Of a stretch of DNA of 64,000 bases, positions 18,639-28,262 are shown piece by piece. The number at the start of each line of letters is the position of its first letter. Positions within the stretch are counted from its first letter, which is position 1. The stretch covers positions 128,001 through 192,000 of the forward strand of contig CAWKNZ010000009.1 in assembly GCA_963851265.1 (NCBI GenBank), in the 5' to 3' direction. The notes beneath the pieces were generated by a model, which did not search any database, was not told the DNA's origin, and saw only the letters and a program-made list of their open reading frames with translations. A program made the position numbers and the translations under genes. This stretch comes from an uncultured Gemmatimonadales bacterium (GTDB taxonomy: Bacteria > Gemmatimonadota > Gemmatimonadetes > Gemmatimonadales > Gemmatimonadaceae).

Positions 18639-19380
18639 CGCCAGGAGACGCACGCGGAGGCCTCGCCCGGATCGCTGATCGCCTCGACGTCGCGGAGCGG
18701 CAAGCACGCACGTCACCGAATCGTGAGCGCGTCGGCCTCGGGGGTTTCGGCCAAGGTAGGTCCCGGCATCGGCATCCGCGAGCAGGAAGGCATCGCGCGG
18801 CGTCAGGACGGGATCGGAAGGACCCGACGTCGGTGCAACGACGGTGGCGCGGGACGGCGGTGCCCGACCGAACGACGAGACGCGCGCGACCGGCAACCAC
18901 GTCGCGATCCCGCTCGACCCGGGTCATGTGCACCCGCGAGTCGCGTTGCGCCGGGGGTCGGTCCAGCGTCAACCGCGCGGTGCGACGCGGACCCCTGCGT
19001 CCTGACGCGCCGCCACACCGCGTTCAAGTCGGCACCCGCCGCGCCGAGACTCCGGAACGCGCGGACCCTTCGCACGGCCGCGCATCGTGCGCTGCCCGCG
19101 ACGCCTGCGTGCGACCCCCTCGTTCGCTCCTCCGACGCGGTGGGGCCAGCATGCCACGTCCCGGCTGCACCGGGACGCGGTGTGCCGGCCCCGCAATTGG
19201 GGGGATCACCGCCATCCGCGCGAGCGCGATGAATCTCCGTCTGGTGCAGCACCACGATCCCACGCCGACCGCGCACGTCGCACCGCCCGCTCCGCGGTCG
19301 GCGGTTCTACCGACGTCGGCGCGCCGAGTGGACGCAACGCGGGCTCGCGCGTGACGCGGTCGACGGAGGGTGACCGCCCG

Positions 19381-21447
19381 ATGCCTCGCGCGGTCGGCTT
19401 CGTGGGGCGCGTTGCGCGACGCGGCCTCGCCCACGTGCGGCAGGGATTCGGGCAGCCCGCGATGGGACCGACGCGAGCCGAGCAGGCGTTCGAGGACCTA
19501 CACCTGGCGCGCGAGGAAGCCGAGAGCACGGCCGCTCGCCTCCGCACGGTCGCGGACGTGGCCGGCGGCGTCATCCGGGCCGACTCCTTGCCCGCCCTGC
19601 ACGCGGTGCTCCGCGACGTCTGCGGTCAGCTGTTCACGTTCGACCGCTTCGCGGTGGTCGCGGGTGAGCCGGTCGGCCCACCCGGCACCCCCGTGCCATT
19701 GCGCGCCCTCGGGGACTCCGATCCGTCCCTGGCCGCTGTCGTCGTCGGCGGGATCACGGTCGCCGGGTGCGGGACCGCGCGGCCCGACTCGTTCTCGACG
19801 AGCGCGTCGTCGGTTCTTGCGGCATCGGACTGCTCGACCCTCGTCAGACCCGTGCTCGGCGACGACGCGGTGCTCGGCTATATCGCCCTGGGCGCCGACC
19901 GACCCGACGCCTTCCGAGTGAGCGACGGCGAGGTGCTCGAAGCGCTTGCCGCGCTGGCGGCCACCGCGATTCGCAACTTGGTGCTCGTCGGCGAGCTGCG
20001 GTACTCGCGCGAGGCGTACGCGCACCAGGCGCTGCACGATCCGCTGACCGGACTTCCCAACCGTGCCGGGCTGCACGAGCACCTCGCGCGGGTGCTGGGC
20101 GGCCCGCACCCGGAGCGCGTGAGCGTGCTCGTCCTCGACCTCGACGGCTTCAAGCGCGTCAACGATTCGTTAGGCCACCCGCAGGGCGACAGCCTGCTGG
20201 TGCAGGTCGCGGAGCGCCTGCTCGACGCCACGCGCGGCAGCGACACGGTCGCGCGACTCGGCGGCGACGAGTTTGCCGTGCTGCTCGAGAACACCCGTGC
20301 GCCGGACGACGCCGTCGCGGTCGCCGAGCGCGTCCTCGGGGCGCTCCGCGCGCCATTCGACCTCGGCGGCGCCGAGGCCATGGTCGGCACGAGCGTGGGT
20401 ATCGCGTTCAGCGGCGCCGCCGAGGCGGACCTTCTGGGCGACGCGACGGCTCTGGGCGACGCCCTGCTGCGCGACGCGGACCTCGCCATGTACCGCGCGA
20501 AAGAATCGGGCAAGGGGCGATACGTAGTCTACGAGCCTCACATGCACGCGGAGGCGGTCAGTCGCCTCGAGCGCGAGGCCGATTTACGCGCGGCGATCGA
20601 GAAGCGCGAATTCCGCCTGTATTACCAGCCGATCGTAGCGCTCGAGACTGGGGCGGCGCTCGGCGTGGAAGCGCTGGTCCGCTGGGAGCACCCGCTTCGT
20701 GGCCTCGTCCCGCCTGCCGAGTTCATCCCGCTCGCCGAGGAGACCGGACTCATCGTGCCGCTCGGCCGTTGGGTCCTGGGCGAGGCGTGCCGCCAGGCGC
20801 GCGTGTGGGCCGACCACGCGTGGGGGACCGACCTCACCGTGACCGTGAACGTGTCGGGCATCCAGCTCTACGACGCCGCGTTCGTCGAGGACGTCCGCCT
20901 GGCACTCGCGGCGAGCGGCGTCACGCCGCAGCGGCTCGTCCTCGAGCTGACCGAAACGGTCATGGTCGACCGACCCGGGCTCGCGCTCGAGCGGTTCAAC
21001 GCACTCAAGGCGCTTGGCGTGCGGCTGGCCATCGACGACTTCGGCACGGGCTATTCGGCACTCAGCTATCTGCGCCAGTTTCCGTTCGACGTCCTCAAGA
21101 TCGACAAGAGCTTCGTGGACGAGGTTGCCACCCGCGGGCAGGCCGCGACGCTCGCGGCGGCGATCGTCGCGCTCGGCAACGCATTCGCCCTGCGCACGGT
21201 GGCGGAGGGCGTCGAGTCGGCCGACCAGGCCACGGCACTCGGCGAGATCGGCTGCGCGATCGCGCAAGGGTACCATTTCAGCCGACCGCTCGCGGCGGAG
21301 GCGGTGACGGCCTGGCTCGCGGCCGAGCGGGTCGCCCCCGCGCCCGACCCACTCGGCGGGGTCACCGAAACGAGGTGGGCGCGGGAGCCCGCGGGCGGGC
21401 GGGCGGCGCCGCTGCGCACCGTGGCGACGCGCGGCGAGCTGCCGTAA
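19381..21447 (+). CDS. GAF-GGDEF-EAL diguanylate cyclase/phosphodiesterase
   Basis: HDPLTGLPNR, DLDGFKRVND, RLGGDEF, VEALVRW, ELTE, IDDFGTGYS, KIDKSFV, AEGVE, QGY. Start may be GTG 19351. Confidence 0.95.
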   Translation: MPRAVGFVGRVARRGLAHVRQGFGQPAMGPTRAEQAFEDLHLAREEAESTAARLRTVADVAGGVIRADSLPALHAVLRDVCGQLFTFDRFAVVAGEPVGPPGTPVPLRALGDSDPSLAAVVVGGITVAGCGTARPDSFSTSASSVLAASDCSTLVRPVLGDDAVLGYIALGADRPDAFRVSDGEVLEALAALAATAIRNLVLVGELRYSREAYAHQALHDPLTGLPNRAGLHEHLARVLGGPHPERVSVLVLDLDGFKRVNDSLGHPQGDSLLVQVAERLLDATRGSDTVARLGGDEFAVLLENTRAPDDAVAVAERVLGALRAPFDLGGAEAMVGTSVGIAFSGAAEADLLGDATALGDALLRDADLAMYRAKESGKGRYVVYEPHMHAEAVSRLEREADLRAAIEKREFRLYYQPIVALETGAALGVEALVRWEHPLRGLVPPAEFIPLAEETGLIVPLGRWVLGEACRQARVWADHAWGTDLTVTVNVSGIQLYDAAFVEDVRLALAASGVTPQRLVLELTETVMVDRPGLALERFNALKALGVRLAIDDFGTGYSALSYLRQFPFDVLKIDKSFVDEVATRGQAATLAAAIVALGNAFALRTVAEGVESADQATALGEIGCAIAQGYHFSRPLAAEAVTAWLAAERVAPAPDPLGGVTETRWAREPAGGRAAPLRTVATRGELP

Positions 21448-21490
21448 CCGCCGGCAGCCGAGGGCGTGTCGGCGGTCGCAGGCGGGTCGA

Positions 21491-22975
21491 CTACGCCGAG
21501 TCGGCGCGGCTGCGATCGCGCCCCGTGGGGAAGCGGCGGTCGAGCTCCCCCTTGCCGGTCCGCACCCACGCATCACGCGTCACGCGGACGATCCGCAACG
21601 GGCGCGCGGCGAGTGGGCCTAACAAATCCGGGAGGTCGCCGGCCTCCGGCACCGGCTCCACCTCGCCGGCAGTCGACAGGGCCAGCACCAGCGTCCGCCC
21701 GTCGGGCGACGACAGCAGGACGTCGGTGAGCTGCGGCCAGCGCGCACGCACCGCGCGCTCGACGGAAGCGGCGGGCACGAACCGGCCGTTCTCCAGCTTG
21801 AAGCTGTCTGCCGTGCGCCCCTCGAACGTGTAGGTGCCGTCGAACTCCCGCCTCGCGAGGTCGCCGGTGCGCACCCAGCGCCCGGGTGGCTCGACGCTGA
21901 TCCCGAGACCTCCGGCCGCGTCGGCCTCCCACACGCCGAGGCAGGCGTTCGCGCCGCGAAACGCGAGCACGTCGTCGGCGTCGAGGCGGACCTCACAGCC
22001 GACTGGGTGACCGAGCGCGCCCGCGTGCCACGCTCCCGGATCACCCATCGTGATGCCCGGCGAGGCTTCGGTCTGACCGTACCCCACGCGCAGTCGCGTG
22101 CCGCGGAGCAGATCGGCGAGTGTCGAGTCGACCGGCGCCCCACCGATCACCCCGCCGCGCAGCCGGCCTAACAGCGCGCGGCCCTCGTCGCGTTCGGCGA
22201 GCAGGCGCAAGGTGTACGGCACGGCGTGCAGGTGCGTGATCGGATGCTCGGCCGCCACGGCCAGCATGGCCGCGGCGTCGCGCCCCCCCGAGGGGTCGCG
22301 CAACAGCTCGGCGCCGGCCAGCAGCGCGGGGAGCAACTCGAGCACCAGGCCGAACGCGTGATGCCACGGCAGCACCGAGAGGACCACGGCCCCATCCATG
22401 GCCAGCAGCGGGGTGTGGCTTGCCAACACCGCTCGCACGTTGGCGTCGGAGAGCGCCACGCGCCGCGGGGCCCCAGTCGTACCACTGGTCTCGAGGAGGA
22501 ATCGCGCCTCGCGGGTCGGCCCCGAGCGTGCCGGGCGCGGGATCACGGCAACGTCGGGCGGCGTGCCCGCGCGCTCCGCGGCGACGATCGCGGCAGCCGC
22601 CGGGCGGCCTGGTGCGACCACGGCATAGCGCGCATCGACGAGGTCGAGCAGGGACGCGACGTCGGCGCTGGCCGGCGCGGGCACGAACGTCAGATCGTCC
22701 CAGAGGGCCGCGACGAGCAGCATCGCGAAGCCCGGGCCGGGCGGCAGTGCACACACGACGCGGTCGCCCGGGCCGACGCCGTGCGTCCGCCACCACGCCG
22801 TCCACCGGCGCGCACCGGCCCACAGCGAGGCGGCGGCCACGAGGTCGTCACGCGTCCACAGCAGCGGGAGCGGACGGCCGCGGAGCCGGCGGTAGAGCGC
22901 GTCGCGCCACGACGACTCCGGCGCGGCACGCTCCGGCGCGAAATCCGTGACCGCAGCATCAGGTCGCACGTCCAT
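21491..22975 (-). CDS. pcl: AMP-binding acyl-CoA ligase, probable p-coumarate ligase for the PYP chromophore
   Basis: P-loop TSGTTG, LPWHHAFG, GYGQTE, RTGDL, EGR..D.FK..NG. Substrate inferred from the divergent pyp/tal operon. Confidence 0.8.
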   Translation of the reverse strand: MDVRPDAAVTDFAPERAAPESSWRDALYRRLRGRPLPLLWTRDDLVAAASLWAGARRWTAWWRTHGVGPGDRVVCALPPGPGFAMLLVAALWDDLTFVPAPASADVASLLDLVDARYAVVAPGRPAAAAIVAAERAGTPPDVAVIPRPARSGPTREARFLLETSGTTGAPRRVALSDANVRAVLASHTPLLAMDGAVVLSVLPWHHAFGLVLELLPALLAGAELLRDPSGGRDAAAMLAVAAEHPITHLHAVPYTLRLLAERDEGRALLGRLRGGVIGGAPVDSTLADLLRGTRLRVGYGQTEASPGITMGDPGAWHAGALGHPVGCEVRLDADDVLAFRGANACLGVWEADAAGGLGISVEPPGRWVRTGDLARREFDGTYTFEGRTADSFKLENGRFVPAASVERAVRARWPQLTDVLLSSPDGRTLVLALSTAGEVEPVPEAGDLPDLLGPLAARPLRIVRVTRDAWVRTGKGELDRRFPTGRDRSRADSA

Positions 22976-22982
22976 GCCGCGA

Positions 22983-22988
22983 ACGTTA
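22983..22988 (-). promoter_or_regulatory. Putative -10 box (TAACGT) 7 nt upstream of the pcl start
   Basis: AT-rich patch in the 105-bp divergent intergenic region; TANNNT pattern. Confidence 0.4.
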
Positions 22989-23080
22989 CAACCTTAGACC
23001 GGCCGGTCCGACAGTCCGAAGCGAAGGCGCGGCGACGGGCCGAATCGGCCGCGGTCCACCCCCCGCCCCTGTTCGTCGTG

Positions 23081-23416
23081 ATGTCATCCCTCGATGCCCC
23101 TCGGCCTGCACCCGCGAGCGCCGGCGCTCCCGACGCCCTGCACGAGATGGTCGCGAGCCTCGAGGCGCAACTCGTCTCGCTCTACGCAGAGCGCGAAGCC
23201 GAGGTCGCCGAGGCCGACACTCTGCGCGCCGCCGTCGCCAGCCTCGAAGAGCAGGCGCGCGCGTGGTACGCGAGCGTCGAGCGCCTCGGCGGTCGCACCG
23301 TCGACGAGGCCGCCGACGCGCTCGTGAGTTACGAGGCCCAGCTCGATGCGCTCTACGCCGCGGTCGACGCGACCCCCGGCGACGGCGGCAGCGCTCCCGC
23401 TTCGACGCCCGCCTGA
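23081..23416 (+). CDS. Small acidic coiled-coil protein with three V.S(L/Y)E.Q...(L/W)YA repeats
   Basis: ATG 23081; repeats VASLEAQLVSLYAE, VASLEEQARAWYAS, LVSYEAQLDALYAA. Confidence 0.75.
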   Translation: MSSLDAPRPAPASAGAPDALHEMVASLEAQLVSLYAEREAEVAEADTLRAAVASLEEQARAWYASVERLGGRTVDEAADALVSYEAQLDALYAAVDATPGDGGSAPASTPA

Positions 23417-23459
23417 ACCGCACTGCGTTCACACCACCTCCACCATCCCGACTTCACCC

Positions 23460-23828
23460 ATGTCCTTCGTTCCTCAGGCCGTCATCGACGGCCTCGCCGA
23501 GTTCTCGCGCTCCCAGGCCGACGCCCAGCCGTTCGGTGTCGTCCGCGTCACCGACGAGGGCATCGTCACGCTCTACAACCGCTGGGAATCCGGCCTCGCG
23601 GGCGTCGCCATCGAGACCGCCGAGGGCCGCAACTTCTTCACGCAGATCGCGCCGTGCACCAACAACCGCCTCGTGTTCGGCCGGTTCAAGGACGGCGTGC
23701 AGAAGAAGCAGCTCGACTCGGAGTTCAACTACACGTTCACGTACAAGATGAAGCCGACCAACGTCGCGCTTCGTCTCTTCCGGCACGAGCCTACGGCGAC
23801 GAACTGGGTGTTCGTCGGGCTGCGCTGA
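23460..23828 (+). CDS. pyp: Photoactive yellow protein
   Basis: 122 aa, colinear with H. halophila PYP: FG, YNxxE (Tyr42/Glu46), GRNFFxxIAPCT (Cys69), FxYTFxYxMxPTxV (Met100), WVFV. Confidence 0.95.
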   Translation: MSFVPQAVIDGLAEFSRSQADAQPFGVVRVTDEGIVTLYNRWESGLAGVAIETAEGRNFFTQIAPCTNNRLVFGRFKDGVQKKQLDSEFNYTFTYKMKPTNVALRLFRHEPTATNWVFVGLR

Positions 23829-23850
23829 GCCGCCGCGGAAGAGCCCGGCC

Positions 23851-24306
23851 ATGATCGCCGAACACCTCAGCGTCGCCGCGAACGTCGACCGGCTCGAAGC
23901 GCTCCTCGAGACGACGTGCAACGGGGTGCCCGCCGGCCCGGCCCGTGAGGCGCTCCTCGCGTATGCGCGGCAGAAGCGGGATGGGATGGTGGCGCTCGCC
24001 GCCGCGCTCCACGCGGCGGACGACGAGCCCGAACTCGTCCGCCTGCTCGCCGCGGTGTGGTTGGAGCTGCGCTGCGAGTGGGAGCGGTACAACAACGTGT
24101 CGAACTATCAGCTCTTTCATTCGGGGCACGACGCCGAGCCCCAGGTCATGGCGGCGGCCGCCACGATGTCGGGCATGCTCACGTGGATCGAGGAGGTCGT
24201 TCCCGGGCCGGCCGTCGAACTCATGACCGTCGCGACGCTCGACATGCTCGACCGCATTCGCGCGGACGTGGTGGAGCGCGCGTTGACGGCCGGCACCGCG
24301 GCCTGA
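23851..24306 (+). CDS. Hypothetical all-helical protein in the pyp operon
   Basis: 22 nt after the pyp stop, coding-like codon usage, aromatic patch WLELRCEWERYNNVSNYQL. Confidence 0.75.
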   Translation: MIAEHLSVAANVDRLEALLETTCNGVPAGPAREALLAYARQKRDGMVALAAALHAADDEPELVRLLAAVWLELRCEWERYNNVSNYQLFHSGHDAEPQVMAAAATMSGMLTWIEEVVPGPAVELMTVATLDMLDRIRADVVERALTAGTAA

Positions 24307-24318
24307 CCAGGCGCCTTC

Positions 24319-25212
24319 GTGGTAGACACCGTCAGCTACACGCCGCGCTTTGCCTGGGCGATGGTGGCCGCACCGGCCGCCACGGGGAGCGCCGTCGTCG
24401 CAACCAACGGGCCCGTAACCGGCGGGCCCGCGCAGGCGGGGCCGCCGAACGGCGCGGCGCTCGCGGAACTCGCGGCCGGGCTCGAGCGGAGCCGCGAGCG
24501 CGTGGAGACGCTGACCAACAGCGCGACCACGGTACTCTGCCTCACCTCGGTCGTGCACACGCAGCTCGCGGACGTGGGCGCGCGCGCGGCCGACGTGAGC
24601 GGCGCGGCCGCGCGCGTGGCCGAGCAGAGCCGCGCTACGGCCACCGCGGCCGCGGAGATTCGCGCCCTGGTCGATGACGCGCGCGCGGCGGTTGCGGCGC
24701 TGGCCGGTCACGCGCGCGACATCGAGCACGTGAGCACGCGCTTGAACGTGCTCGCCGTCGAGGCGCGCTTCGTCGGACTCAACGCGGCCATCGAGGCGGC
24801 GCGCGCCGGCGACGCGGGCCGAACCTTCGCGGTGGTGGCCGACAAGGTCCGCGAACTCGCCGACGGGGCATCCGACGCCGCGACGCAGATCATCGGCCGC
24901 CTCGGGCGCATCCGCGACGACGCGCTGCAGTCCGCGGCCGTGATGGAGCGCGCCGGCGTGTCGGTCGGCGCGATCGACGCGTTCACCGCCGGCGTGGCCG
25001 ACGCCGCGGCGGCGCAGGAGGCGGGCACCGCCGAGATCACGAGCAGCCTAACGCAGGTGTCGGGCGCGGTCGACGAGATCGTCCGTGCGGTAGAGGACAT
25101 CACCGAAGTCGGCATGGTGCTCGGAGACGGGACCGCCGAGAATCTCGCGCTCGCCGGCGCACTCGGCGCCGGCGCGGCGGCTTCCGATCCCGCGCCAGCG
25201 AGCGACTCGTGA
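24319..25212 (+). CDS. Soluble methyl-accepting chemotaxis protein (signalling domain only)
   Basis: Hairpin tip LNAAIEAARAGDAGRTFAVVADKVRELA; no TM or sensor domain. Start may be ATG 24361. Confidence 0.9.
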   Translation: MVDTVSYTPRFAWAMVAAPAATGSAVVATNGPVTGGPAQAGPPNGAALAELAAGLERSRERVETLTNSATTVLCLTSVVHTQLADVGARAADVSGAAARVAEQSRATATAAAEIRALVDDARAAVAALAGHARDIEHVSTRLNVLAVEARFVGLNAAIEAARAGDAGRTFAVVADKVRELADGASDAATQIIGRLGRIRDDALQSAAVMERAGVSVGAIDAFTAGVADAAAAQEAGTAEITSSLTQVSGAVDEIVRAVEDITEVGMVLGDGTAENLALAGALGAGAAASDPAPASDS

Positions 25213-26888
25213 CCGCATCGCTCCGCGACGTCCCGCGGGCGATCGCGCCCGGTGGCGAGGGAGACGCGGGCACGACGACGGTGGACCTGGGCGGACACGT
25301 CACGCCGGCCGACATCTACGCCGTCGCCGTCCGCGGGGCGCCGCCGCGAATCGGGCCCGACGCGCGGGCTCGGATGGAGGCGTCGGCGGAATACCTGGCA
25401 CGGTGCGTCGACGAGCGGCGGCTGGTGTACGGCGTCACGACCGGCTACGGCCCGCTCGCGCGGCACCATGTCGGGCCGGAGCACGCCGCGACGCTCCAGC
25501 AGAACCTCATCTATCACCTCGCTTCGGGCGTCGGCGCGCCGCTCTCGCCGGCGCACACGCGTGCGCTGATGGCGGCGCGCGTCGCGAGCCTGGCCCGCGG
25601 CTACTCCGGCGTTGGGCGCGCGACCGCCGACCTGCTGCTCGCGTGCCTCACGCGCGGCGTCACGCCCGTTGTCCCCGAGCGGGGCACGGTGGGGGCGAGT
25701 GGTGACCTGACGCCGCTCGCCCACGTGGCGCTCGTGCTCATCGGCGAGGGGCGGGCCGCGTACCGCGGCGGCGTCCTGCCGGGGGCCGACGCGCTTCGGC
25801 TGGCGGGGCTCGCGCCGGTGGCGCTCGGGCACAAGGAGGGGCTCGCGTTGGTGAACGGCACGTCGGCGATGACGGGGATCGCCGCCGTGAACGCCGAGCG
25901 TGCGCGCCGGCTCGCGGAGCTGGTCGCGCGCCTCGCGGTGCTGCACGCCGAGGTTCTGGGGGGGCACGTCGAAGCATGGGACGCGCGCTTCGGGCGCGCG
26001 CGGCCGCACCCCGGGCAACGCGCGGCGCACGCGCGACTGCTGCGACTCGCGCGCGGGAGCGGCCGCCTAACGCCGTCGGTGCAGCCGCCGCCGCGGCTCG
26101 ACGCGCGGAGCGAGGCGACCGGACTGTTCAGCGCGCCCGAGCCGCCGCAGGACCCGTACACGATCCGGTGCGTTCCGCAGGAGCTCGGCGCCGCTCTCGA
26201 CGTGCTCGCCTTCCACGCCGGCGTGGTGGGAACGGAGCTCAACAGCGCCACCGACAATCCGCTCGTCTTCGCCGACGGCGCGGACGACCCGGATGGCGCG
26301 GTGTTGCACGGCGGCAACTTCTACGGCCAGCACGTCGCGTTCGCGAGCGACGCGCTCGCGATGGCGGTGGTCAAGCTCGCGGCCTGGAGTGAGCGGGCGC
26401 TCGCGCGGCTCACCAATCCGGCCTACAACAAGGGGTTGCCGGCGTTTCTGCACGGCGGAGCGCCGGGGCTGACGAGCGGTTTGATGGGAGCGCAGGTCAC
26501 GGCGACGGCACTCGTCGCGGAGATGCGCACCGGTGCGGTCCCTGCGTCGATCCAGACGATCCCGACGAACAACGACAATCAGGACGTCGTCACGATGGGT
26601 ACGATCGCCGCTCGCAAGGCGAGCGGGCTGCTCGACCTCGCGTGGCACGTGCTGGCGATCCACGCGATCGCCGCCGCGCAGGCGTCGGAGTGCCGGGCGC
26701 GCGAGGGCGGCGCGCGGGCGCCCGGCGACGCGGGCTTCTCCTCCGCGAGTGCCGCGCTCTGGTCGGCGGTACGCGGCGCGGTCGCACCGCTCGACACGGA
26801 CCGCCCCCTGTCCGACGACATCATGCGCCTCGCCGAGGCGCTGGAGCACGACGACGCGCTGCTCGGTGCGAGCCCACTCCTGACGTAG
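25209..26888 (+). CDS. tal: Aromatic amino-acid ammonia-lyase, tyrosine-type
   Basis: YGVTTGYG, MIO triad in GTVGASGDL, QDPYTIRC, HGGNFYG. NLIYHLASGVG has His at the TAL selectivity position. GTGA overlap with the MCP stop. Confidence 0.88.
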   Translation: MTASLRDVPRAIAPGGEGDAGTTTVDLGGHVTPADIYAVAVRGAPPRIGPDARARMEASAEYLARCVDERRLVYGVTTGYGPLARHHVGPEHAATLQQNLIYHLASGVGAPLSPAHTRALMAARVASLARGYSGVGRATADLLLACLTRGVTPVVPERGTVGASGDLTPLAHVALVLIGEGRAAYRGGVLPGADALRLAGLAPVALGHKEGLALVNGTSAMTGIAAVNAERARRLAELVARLAVLHAEVLGGHVEAWDARFGRARPHPGQRAAHARLLRLARGSGRLTPSVQPPPRLDARSEATGLFSAPEPPQDPYTIRCVPQELGAALDVLAFHAGVVGTELNSATDNPLVFADGADDPDGAVLHGGNFYGQHVAFASDALAMAVVKLAAWSERALARLTNPAYNKGLPAFLHGGAPGLTSGLMGAQVTATALVAEMRTGAVPASIQTIPTNNDNQDVVTMGTIAARKASGLLDLAWHVLAIHAIAAAQASECRAREGGARAPGDAGFSSASAALWSAVRGAVAPLDTDRPLSDDIMRLAEALEHDDALLGASPLLT

Positions 26889-27017
26889 ACCGGCGCCGGC
26901 GACGGTCGGCGCGTTCGGCGCTCGCGCCGTGCGCGATCTCCTCAATTCTTCCGCTGAGTGTCTCACCACCTCGACGTCCCGCGCCTTCCGAGCGCAGACC
27001 GCTGTCCGACCGCACCG

Positions 27018-28262
27018 ATGCGTGCGGTGATGGACGACTCTCGCGCCCGCGACGACGCACGTCACGATCACTCGCCGACGTCGCGCCCGATCGCGCCCGT
27101 CGGTCCGCTCCGCATCGACGTGGCGACCACGATCGGGCAGTTCGAACGTCTCGAGGGCGAGTGGTCGGCCCTGCTGGCGCGCGTACCGGGCGCGCTGCCG
27201 TTCGCTACGTACGACTGGGCGCGGGCGTGGTGGGAGCATCTGCGGCGCGACGGCCGCTGGACGCGCGACGCGCTCTGCGTGTTCGCCGTCCGGACTGCCG
27301 CGGGCGACCCGGTCGCGTTCGCGGCCTACATGCGCACGGCCTACCGCGTGCTCGGCCTGCCCGTCGCCAGGATCGTGCAGCCGTTCGGGGCCGATCCGAA
27401 CCTCACCGAAGTGCGCGGGATGCTCGTCGCGCCCGAGCACGAGGCCGCGGTAGTCGCGGCCATCGACGCCCACCTGCGCGGCGGGCGCGCATGCGACTGG
27501 GTGCGCTGGGGCGGACTCACGCGGGACGGTGCGGCGCTCGCCACGCTCGCGTCACGCGATGGCGCGGTGGTGGACCGAGTGCTGCCGACCTTCGTGCTGG
27601 CGCTCCCCGACACGTGGGACGAGTTCCGCCGCACGCGCCCGCGCAACGTGCGCGAGTCTCTCCGGAAGTGCTACAAGCTTCTCGAGCGCGACGGCCATGC
27701 GTGGGAGTTCCGGGCCCTCGACACCGGCCCCGCGGTCGCGGCGGCGCTCGACGGATGGTTCGACCTGCACGGCCGCCGTGCGGCACTGACCGAGACGTCG
27801 GTCCGGCATCCGGATTACTTCGCCGTGCCCGGCGCGCGGGCGTTCGTGGCCGACGTCGTGGAGCGCATGGGGCGGCGCGGCGGCGTGCGCATGTTCCAGC
27901 TCCAAATCGGCGCCGACGTCGTCGCCATGCGACTCGGCTTCGTCGTGGGCGACAGTCTGTACCTGTACTACTCGGGCTACGATCCCGCGTGGAAGGCCTA
28001 CAGCGTGATGACCACGGTGGTCGCCGAGTCGATCCGGTACGCGATCGAGCACGGAATCCGCACCGTGAACCTGTCGAGCGGCGCCGACCAGTCCAAAGCG
28101 CGGTGGCGCCCGAGCGAGGTGGCCTACGCCGACGCGGTCGCCATCCGCCCCGGCCGGCGCGCGCACCTCGCCCACCGCGCGTTCACCGCGTTGCGGGCGC
28201 GGACGGATCGCCGCGATGCCCCTCTTCCGCCTGCGGCGTCGGAGGCCGCGTCCGATGCCTGA
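27018..28262 (+). CDS. CelD/BcsL-type GNAT acyltransferase
   Basis: LEGEWSALL..PFATYDWARAWW, LPDTWDEF, YLYYSGYDPAW, NLSSGADQSKARW. Confidence 0.82.
   Translation: MRAVMDDSRARDDARHDHSPTSRPIAPVGPLRIDVATTIGQFERLEGEWSALLARVPGALPFATYDWARAWWEHLRRDGRWTRDALCVFAVRTAAGDPVAFAAYMRTAYRVLGLPVARIVQPFGADPNLTEVRGMLVAPEHEAAVVAAIDAHLRGGRACDWVRWGGLTRDGAALATLASRDGAVVDRVLPTFVLALPDTWDEFRRTRPRNVRESLRKCYKLLERDGHAWEFRALDTGPAVAAALDGWFDLHGRRAALTETSVRHPDYFAVPGARAFVADVVERMGRRGGVRMFQLQIGADVVAMRLGFVVGDSLYLYYSGYDPAWKAYSVMTTVVAESIRYAIEHGIRTVNLSSGADQSKARWRPSEVAYADAVAIRPGRRAHLAHRAFTALRARTDRRDAPLPPAASEAASDA

Follow-up and report, generated by a model that had tools for sequence, protein, structure and literature searches.

How a photoactive yellow protein (PYP) that consists of a single sensory domain conveys light to the rest of the cell is the question raised by a locus from an uncultured Gemmatimonadales bacterium. 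PYP has served as a textbook model photoreceptor for decades, and the signal chain that follows it was named as the main gap by two recent surveys of the family (PMC12826048, PMC9664959; publications are cited here and below for the passages, tables and data sets that bear on the locus). The locus occupies positions 21491-26888 of the window, by which we mean the whole 64,000-nt stretch of DNA analysed (contig CAWKNZ010000009.1 of assembly GCA_963851265.1; C9:128001-192000). It brings a pyp gene together with genes for chromophore supply, a chemoreceptor of the methyl-accepting chemotaxis protein (MCP) type and two small helical proteins, which we call cc111 and unk151. We put at roughly 55% the probability that the locus is a clade-B-type blue-light module in which PYP signals through unk151, acting as a connector, to the soluble MCP and from there through CheW/CheA to a Che-type output.

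In such a module, a tyrosine ammonia-lyase (TAL) and a p-coumarate ligase (pCL) would make p-coumarate and attach it to C66 (the Cys69 equivalent) of the basic PYP, which would work together with two acidic helical proteins, cc111 and unk151, the constant companions of this PYP subtype. A motif of unk151 (W77, N81, N85, Y86) is predicted to dock on that face of PYP which bears the chromophore pocket, with C66 and the TYKMKP loop, and binding might be light-dependent because the docking face rearranges on photoactivation. The connector would then pass the signal to the 297-aa (amino acid) MCP, whose kinase-control tip is intact, and the MCP would act through CheW/CheA on flagellar behaviour or another Che-type output. 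We consider this path the most likely because the same domain forms the N-terminal module of a soluble MCP (protein P0031) or of a CheA-like protein in relatives.

The distribution of unk151 provides the first part of the evidence. This acidic, all-helical protein (23851-24306, + strand, 151 aa, isoelectric point (pI) 4.64), the proposed PYP-binding connector, had no match in Pfam or NCBIfam. Across 201 genomes of the order, the source genome (G000) included, the unk profile matched five (G000, G073, G086, G138 and G099), and the profile of unk-linked PYPs scored 198-224 bits in exactly the same five genomes, the next best score being 117.8 bits; 16 further genomes held lower-scoring PYP types only and no unk. 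A sixth candidate, in G132 (L016), came from a single-protein search and is likely an off-frame low-complexity stretch, absent from the profile search at 1e-5. The source genome itself encodes three PYP homologues and one unk gene, which accompanies the window PYP only. Its other two PYP paralogues (C3:181322-181660, L002; C7:481380-481703, L001) have neither an unk nor a cc neighbour; the C3 PYP (143 aa) directly precedes a PAS-GGDEF-EAL gene, and pyp-GGDEF/EAL is a published operon type (PMC12826048, Table 2).

A scan of all species genomes for the motif WLELR[FC][EA]W[EQM] returned 18 loci, all in Gemmatimonadales, three of which lie on the same contigs as those of G138, G073 and G099. The pyp gene adjoins unk in 15 of the 18, the exceptions being L024, L027 (on a 2.4-kb contig) and L030 (1.9 kb). 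Metagenome contigs were scanned with a degenerate DNA pattern for the same motif, and the 74 stretches recovered collapsed to 71 loci and 57 unique groups. The unk profile matched in 56 of these (the remaining group, L104, was a false match), and 44 of the 56 also carry a PYP at E<1e-10. Of 67 unk matches of the stand-alone type, the contig reaches 700 nt upstream for 51, and in 46 of these the gene immediately preceding unk, on the same strand, is pyp; the other five comprise four contig-end fragments of divergent fusion genes and one extra copy within the same cluster. The arrangement is therefore not one of chance, since the gene set recurs in 15/18 genome loci and 44/56 metagenome groups. 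In several metagenome clusters two tandem unk genes follow pyp.

The association also extends across phyla. G+C content ranges from 29 to 75% among the metagenome unk loci; in each of the five at 29-42%, pyp lies 9-79 nt ahead of unk. Locus L082 (33% G+C) reads HAMP-MCP, a 143-aa protein, PYP and unk, and it also has the Leptospira-associated DUF1574; its unk is 72% identical to a protein from a Leptospiraceae metagenome-assembled genome (MAG). Locus L098 (29% G+C) reads 106-aa protein, PYP and unk, followed by an amine oxidase, and L085 (42% G+C) reads BLUF-cyclase, PYP, unk and pcl. The BLUF-adenylate/guanylate cyclase of the latter (L085:4139-5155) lies directly upstream of pyp-unk-pcl, placing two blue-light sensors side by side. 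Leptospiraceae-like loci carry an MCP beside the trio of cc repeat protein, PYP and unk, and we show that this trio is common to Gemmatimonadales and Leptospiraceae-like DNA (29-36% G+C).

The third member of the trio is represented in the window by cc111 (23081-23416, + strand, 111 aa), an acidic helical repeat protein (pI 4.06) with three repeats of the [LF]ExQ[LV]xx[LM]Y type (LEAQLVSLY, LEEQARAWY, YEAQLDALY). No Pfam family matched it significantly, coiled-coil matches being sub-threshold only. Across the loci, 49 ORFs (open reading frames) that precede pyp contain 3-6 copies of this repeat, which is also found in the small proteins of the Leptospiraceae-like loci L082 and L098 (LEEQVEDLYQEKEE vs SLEAQLVSLYAEREAE). 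Since both small proteins are co-conserved with PYP across phyla, they belong to the PYP module, as the preliminary description had supposed. cc111 is shorter than its relatives (111 vs 170-183 aa; e.g., L012:8676-9227) and does not have their C-terminal LEAQVAALL...KRRAREL helix. Because the number of repeats varies, the protein is perhaps a multivalent scaffold.

What follows the trio varies among relatives. In tblastn searches of 20-kb stretches with the window's proteins, G138 and G086 show the order cc, pyp, unk, HDOD, a protein of about 500 aa (unk-like N-terminus plus CheW) and tal, with pcl nearby, while G099, from another family, shows pcl on the minus strand and then cc, pyp, unk, HDOD, a small MCP and tal. 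Across the 18 genome loci, HDOD is present in 14 (e.g., L014:10316-11341), a CheW-containing unk fusion in 11 and a small MCP in two (L017, L032); L028/L015 hold pyp, unk and pcl only. In nearly every relative, unk is separated from the Che-type gene by an HDOD gene, which the window does not have; five HDOD matches occur elsewhere in the source genome, one of them (C3:177334) at a distance of about 4 kb from the second PYP. The expectation in the preliminary description that the small genes and the MCP would stay linked to pyp fared unevenly, with unk beside pyp in 15/18 loci and an MCP present in two. Within this conserved cluster type, the locus in the window represents a variant with an MCP and without HDOD.

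The unk family ties the trio to chemosensory proteins through its fusions. A profile built from nine sequences and searched against 1.84 billion representatives retrieved 270 proteins at E<=1e-3, of which 111 reach <=1e-10 and 17 reach <=1e-30, in three size classes of ~135-165, ~300-350 and ~460-530 aa. The domain, for which the window unk151 was the seed, is helical, about 140 aa long and marked by the core WLELRxEWxRYNxxxNY, in its wider form [DE]DExELxxxLxxxW[LI]EL[RK]xEWxR[YH]NxxxxY. All 53 stand-alone members examined have W77, nearly all have E72, N81 and E114, and Pfam gave just three single weak matches among them, none of its families covering the domain. Composition runs from Ala/Arg/Gly/Pro-rich to Lys/Asn/Ile-rich, and two members of the latter kind are Leptospiraceae MAG proteins. 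The AlphaFold2 (AF2) model of unk151 has six helices with a predicted local distance difference test (pLDDT) score of 97.2; searched against the PDB, this fold had no Foldseek match at E<=1e-3 and a best VIA Z of 9.0, where noise for helical bundles is ~13, and a search of the ESM Atlas gave no usable match.

Among 48 long members, Pfam found CheW in 12 and HATPase_c in three; 34 of the 48 matched no family, or 35 counting P0016, which has only a sub-threshold match to DUF3422. Protein P0110 combines unk, H-kinase_dim, HATPase_c and CheW, i.e., it is a CheA with unk in place of P1-P2. P0031, a 454-aa protein from a 2.3-kb metagenome contig, joins unk to MCPsignal: its residues 25-149 are 44% identical to unk151, and its residues 197-402 are 53% identical to residues 61-266 of the window MCP. 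A 492-aa fusion protein of G138/L012 (model pLDDT 90.0), without a phmmer match among PDB sequences, matches CheA P3-P4-P5 in fold searches (6s1k_A, E. coli CheA, E 3.6e-18; 1b3q, E 5.9e-16; 2ch4, E 1e-15). A protein of this kind, ~490 aa and composed of unk plus CheA P3-P4-P5, stands in for the MCP in most Gemmatimonadales relatives (L012:11305-12780 in G138, L018-L023, L026, L029, L031, L033 and L034). It has no P1, no P2 and no conserved phospho-accepting His, and it might act as a kinase that takes a new input or else serve as a pseudo-kinase scaffold. Because unk occupies the position of CheA P1-P2 in these fusions, we considered that unk151 might be a divergent Hpt/P1 domain; the family has no invariant His, and neither Foldseek nor VIA-align yielded a fold match, so this candidate was rejected. 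The unk151 family therefore occurs free, fused to an MCP or fused to CheA P3-P4-P5.

Prediction of the complex between PYP and unk151, the second part of the evidence, gave ipSAE values of 0.70, 0.68 and 0.71, compared with 0.00 for the best of three controls. The three runs share at least 96% of contacts, with partner pLDDT of at least 85. Inputs were custom alignments (22 rows for PYP, 53 for unk151), so that the calibration, in which 116 of 157 solved complexes and two of 215 mismatched pairs reach the same ipSAE mark, holds only roughly. On the PYP side the predicted interface comprises C66, N69, L71, F89-T92, T94-P99 (TYKMKP, with the Met100 equivalent) and N101; on the unk151 side it comprises W77, Y80-N82, S84-Y86 and the following helix, that is, the signature of the family. 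Among 22 unk-linked PYPs, the interface residues C66, N69, F89, Y95 and P99 are invariant and Y91, T94, K96 and N101 nearly so, and W77 and N81 are, respectively, invariant and nearly invariant across the unk family. We take this to be the chromophore-proximal face of PYP, which presumably moves on photoactivation as in Halorhodospira halophila PYP. The model supports binding of unk151 by PYP, a contact that the preliminary description had proposed should be sought by complex prediction.

The pyp gene (23460-23828, + strand, 122 aa, pI 8.89) encodes a single-domain protein that matches TIGR02373 with 98 bits (positions 11-121 of 124, E 4e-28; curated cut-off 143). PYP and Ppr chains of the PDB match it by phmmer at E 2e-22 to 1e-19 (1mzu at 2.3e-22, H. 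halophila PYP at 1e-19), with a residue register of +3 that brings its Y39, E43 and C66 onto Tyr42, Glu46 and Cys69 in H. halophila numbering. C66 and Y39 are invariant and E43 is nearly so among the 22 unk-linked PYPs, and the protein shares 54-68% identity with those from other loci, L085 (41%) excepted. On sequence grounds, it is sound to conclude that the gene probably encodes a real photoactive yellow protein.

Chromophore supply is represented by two genes. On the minus strand, pcl (21491-22975, 494 aa) encodes an adenylate-forming ligase and candidate p-coumarate ligase (PF00501 AMP-binding, 111.9 bits), and at the other end tal (25209-26888, + strand, 559 aa) encodes an aromatic amino acid ammonia-lyase and candidate tyrosine ammonia-lyase (PF00221, 528 bits). 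Relatives' clusters contain homologues of both, at 44-51% identity for pcl and 61-66% for tal. The tal translation contains GASGDL, with the Ala-Ser-Gly triad of the 4-methylidene-imidazole-5-one (MIO) group, and falls under every NCBIfam equivalog cut-off, including those of HAL and TAL, the top match being a HAL subfamily (471.8 vs 524). It also has a His-Leu pair (YHLASGVG), a combination that may mark selectivity for tyrosine. The family matches and the aligned Y39/E43/C66 support the view, already put forward in the preliminary description, that the locus is probably a self-contained PYP module with its own chromophore genes. The gene order described there was likewise re-found, with pcl divergent from cc111-pyp-unk151-MCP-tal and all six ORFs and strands as given, and the gaps of 43, 22 and 12 nt followed by a GTGA overlap of MCP stop and tal start (25209-25212) were reproduced from the coordinates.

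The receiving end of the proposed chain is the MCP (24319-25212, + strand, 297 aa, pI 4.55), which matches PF00015 (65.2 bits, cut-off 34.6, residues 104-261). It is built of about 60 aa of low-complexity linker followed by a signalling hairpin with the canonical tip LNAAIEAARAGDAGRTFAVVADKVRELA, and its closest PDB match, T. maritima TM1143 (2ch7, E 2.9e-14), has a nearly identical tip. We call it sensor-less and soluble because it has no other Pfam domain and no hydrophobic segment: the maximum 19-residue Kyte-Doolittle hydropathy is 1.40, which gives no transmembrane segment, and neither Pfam nor hydropathy revealed a ligand-binding, transmembrane or HAMP input module, a lack that does not speak against its PF00015 membership. 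Homologues at 55-81% identity form 11 clusters of stand-alone proteins of 253-322 aa, P0031 alone being fused; one of them, P0177 (58% identity), comes from a Gemmatirosa sp. MAG. The preliminary description had PYP signalling in trans to this MCP through two small proteins. For unk151 this is borne out in part, as the protein is tied to the MCP by the P0031 fusion and to PYP by adjacency, by 5/5 co-occurrence and by the complex prediction; cc111 is tied to the module by co-conservation, and its role in the relay can be suggested at most.

Components to which such an MCP might report are available in the source genome (4.6 Mb, 12 contigs, ~74% G+C). It contains 10 MCP-signal matches, two CheA genes, CheW and two flagellin genes, and one of the CheA genes lies about 10 kb from the two flagellin genes. 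CheA, CheW and flagellin genes, of the kinds that the preliminary description wished to see located, are thus present.

Several observations weigh against the proposed chain. As unk151 has no recognisable fold relative, there is no mechanism to borrow. The complex was modelled with apo-PYP, without chromophore, and an interface on the attachment site would fit a role in maturation equally well; the custom alignments also place the prediction outside the calibration of the tool. Genomes of one order are kin, so that the 5/5 co-occurrence reflects few independent events. L024, from a Gemmatimonas sp. MAG, has unk and no pyp in 16 kb, and it is the only long unk locus without pyp, cc, tal and pcl within 8 kb on either side. 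Most relatives have HDOD and the CheA-like fusion, not an MCP, and since the window lacks both, its wiring may differ. The start of the MCP is uncertain (GTG, no visible ribosome-binding site), and the in-frame TGA upstream of it could mean decay. Finally, the TIGR02373 score lies under the curated cut-off, and Thr50 and Arg52 are replaced by Ala and Val in the window PYP; the Gemmatimonas clade-B PYP is likewise listed under the cut-off (Xing 2022, PMC9664959).

The TGA deserves closer attention. The unk151 and MCP ORFs share one reading frame (frame 0) and are separated by this single codon (24304-24306) and four further codons, i.e., a 12-nt spacer (the whole feature spanning 24304-24318). 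Read through, with X at the stop, they would give a protein of 453 aa that is colinear with the 454-aa P0031, the stop falling inside the low-complexity linker. Together with the poorly marked GTG start, this is what would be expected if the two were halves of a broken fusion gene, with TGA 24304 arising from nonsense mutation or faulty assembly and the MCP portion unmade or non-functional. However, the close unk relatives (66-73% identity) fall into twelve clusters of proteins that are 149-157 aa long and stop where unk151 stops, the eleven MCP clusters are likewise stand-alone with P0031 as the sole fusion, and other relatives keep unk and MCP as separate genes with HDOD between them. Two pairs of unk and MCP relatives come from contigs of equal size (3335 and 2234 nt), so that the two genes may be adjacent and split there as well. 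Contigs matched to the locus cover parts of it only, and uncovered parts carry no information; one metagenome contig, spanning 24076-24327, reproduces the sequence with 0 differences, TGA included, although it may derive from the source sample and so is possibly not independent. Because stand-alone unk and MCP relatives are the rule in the lineage, we read unk151 and MCP as what is probably a genuine two-gene arrangement, and a broken fusion is the least probable of the explanations weighed here.

Two other explanations accept intact genes and place the function of unk151 elsewhere. The conserved unit might be cc111-PYP-unk151 only, the MCP being an interchangeable neighbour and the output lying elsewhere (a CheA/CheW array, cyclic di-GMP/HDOD-type signalling or gene expression). 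The changing gene after unk (HDOD with the CheA-like fusion in 11/18 genome loci, MCP in two) would agree with this, as would the BLUF-cyclase and pcl neighbours in L085, the amine oxidase of L098, the reduced set of L028/L015 and the GAF-GGDEF-EAL gene that abuts the window cluster. Yet unk is directly joined, in P0031, to an orthologue of the window MCP, an MCP stands beside the trio again in Leptospiraceae-like loci, and all variable neighbours with a Pfam-recognised signalling domain are of Che type (MCP, CheA-like) or HDOD; the GGDEF-EAL gene had no match in the five relatives' loci tested. We consider this explanation unlikely. It is quite improbable, and more so than the interchangeable neighbour, that unk151 (perhaps with cc111) is a maturation or holding factor that occupies the apo-PYP pocket until pCL delivers p-coumarate and transduces no signal. 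The predicted interface does cover Cys66 and the pocket loop of the apo model, pcl and tal are invariably part of the cluster or next to it, and extra stand-alone unk copies lie directly beside pcl at the far end of the cluster in L021 (13639-13917), L031 (12789-13064) and L066 (9801-10229). That unk is found joined to an MCP, and standing in for P1-P2 ahead of CheA P3-P5, would be pointless for a chaperone, however; the two other PYP paralogues of the source genome do without unk, and PYPs of the H. halophila type reach the holo-protein with TAL and pCL alone (PMC12826048).

The relay from PYP through unk151 to the soluble MCP can also be stated more broadly. At slightly less than even odds, unk151 would represent a new cross-phylum 'PYP-receiver' domain, a direct downstream partner of clade-B single-domain PYPs that senses the light-driven change in the chromophore-pocket loop and feeds chemosensory arrays as a free protein, fused to a soluble MCP or in replacement of CheA P1-P2, with the repeat protein as an obligatory third component.

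The 105-nt divergent intergenic region between pcl and cc111 (22976-23080), presumably a shared promoter region, had no match to the sigma-70 consensus, which is uninformative for this phylum. A promoter/terminator scan of 21000-27500 gave zero promoters and one terminator at chance level, and an Rfam scan of the whole window matched no family. The GAF-GGDEF-EAL ORF (19087-21447, + strand, 786 aa) ends 43 nt from the 3' end of pcl in convergent orientation; searches of five relatives' loci with it and with the GNAT gene on the other flank (26958-28262) gave nothing at E<=1e-3. A sequencing-run search found one soil-metagenome DNA run that contains 21% of the locus words, and it listed no RNA run containing them.

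If the PYP-receiver reading is correct, Gemmatimonadales and saprophytic Leptospiraceae would share one dedicated phototaxis input device that is invisible to current annotation. For PYP itself, unk151 is a concrete small soluble candidate partner, and the predicted interface suggests point mutants (W77 and N81 of unk151, the TYKMKP loop of PYP), while the natural fusions point to the MCP and the CheA-like protein. The unk family adds a Pfam-less domain to the input modules of chemosensory systems, and a light-controlled pair of PYP and partner could serve as an optogenetic tool. As the trio occurs in Leptospiraceae-like DNA and beside the PYP of the cultured Gemmatimonas phototrophica (Data Set S3, PMC9664959), the hypothesis is testable in existing strains.

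How much of this architecture was already described, a point on which the preliminary description had reserved judgement, can be answered in part. Both a clade-B PYP beside a sensor-less chemoreceptor (PMC9664959) and MCP-PYP fusions (PMC12826048) are in print. We did not find in print the proposed connector domain, its partner with the repeats, or a layout with a soluble MCP and no HDOD: in the literature searched, no publication names or analyses the unk domain, the cc repeat protein or the fusion of CheA-like type, none deals with PYP and HDOD together, and among publications on PYP and Gemmatimonas none concerned this locus, as judged from titles and the opening lines of abstracts.

Among light sensors with experimental links, Ppr of Rhodocista centenaria binds CheW (Kreutel et al. 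2010, PMC2993699). It is a PYP-containing photoreceptor linked experimentally to the chemotaxis scaffold, a multidomain protein that makes the contact through its kinase domain, with no single-domain PYP or connector in the account cited. Similar in charge pattern to the window pair is Rc-PYP of Rhodobacter capsulatus, which is bound light-dependently by PBP, a small acidic protein encoded adjacently (bioRxiv 10.1101/2021.06.01.446672): the pI values are 9.4 for Rc-PYP and 3.9 for PBP (142 aa), against 8.89 for the window PYP and 4.64 for unk151. PBP is predicted to contain helices and beta-sheets, whereas the unk151 model is all-helical; the resemblance concerns charge and size. The pyp-pcl-tal operon of H. 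halophila (PMC12826048) unites the same three functions in one locus, from which the window differs in gene order, in the divergent pcl and in three added genes (cc111, unk151 and MCP).

Twelve MCP-PYP fusions with a C-terminal PYP have been reported (Dohmen et al. 2025, PMC12826048), among them those of Methylomicrobium alcaliphilum and Nitrincola alkalilacustris, and none of the 113 pyp operons in Table 2 of that work is listed with an MCP. These fusions link PYP to the MCP signalling domain and imply phototaxis via CheA/CheY, and some of them have no transmembrane helices or HAMP. In the window, PYP is free and encoded upstream, and the separate helical domain lies on the N-terminal side of the MCP; as described, the fusions have no connector domain. 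The same work (Table 1) gives a photocycle of 0.35 s for Lbif PYP of Leptospira biflexa, which would be a taxis-compatible time scale by analogy.

Among the closest known systems are the clade-B PYPs, which frequently adjoin a chemoreceptor without sensory domains, and for which a CetA/CetB-like relay has been proposed (Xing, Gumerov & Zhulin 2022, PMC9664959). Data Set S3 of that study lists PYP-None-MCP for Leptospira and TAL-None-HDOD-None-PYP-None for Gemmatimonas phototrophica, and Sphaerotilus natans is included too. As in the Leptospira pair, the window places a single-domain PYP beside an MCP without a ligand-binding domain, here two genes downstream of pyp, and the G. phototrophica order is that of the relatives found here. 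The chemoreceptors treated in that work have transmembrane regions, whereas the window MCP is soluble, with close homologues of 253-322 aa. The 'None' genes of Data Set S3 correspond to the two conserved families described here, one of which is also fused to an MCP or a CheA-like protein and is a predicted binder of PYP. To the published picture, the present locus and its relatives add a conserved three-protein sensor core and a new domain, a candidate connector between PYP and Che proteins.

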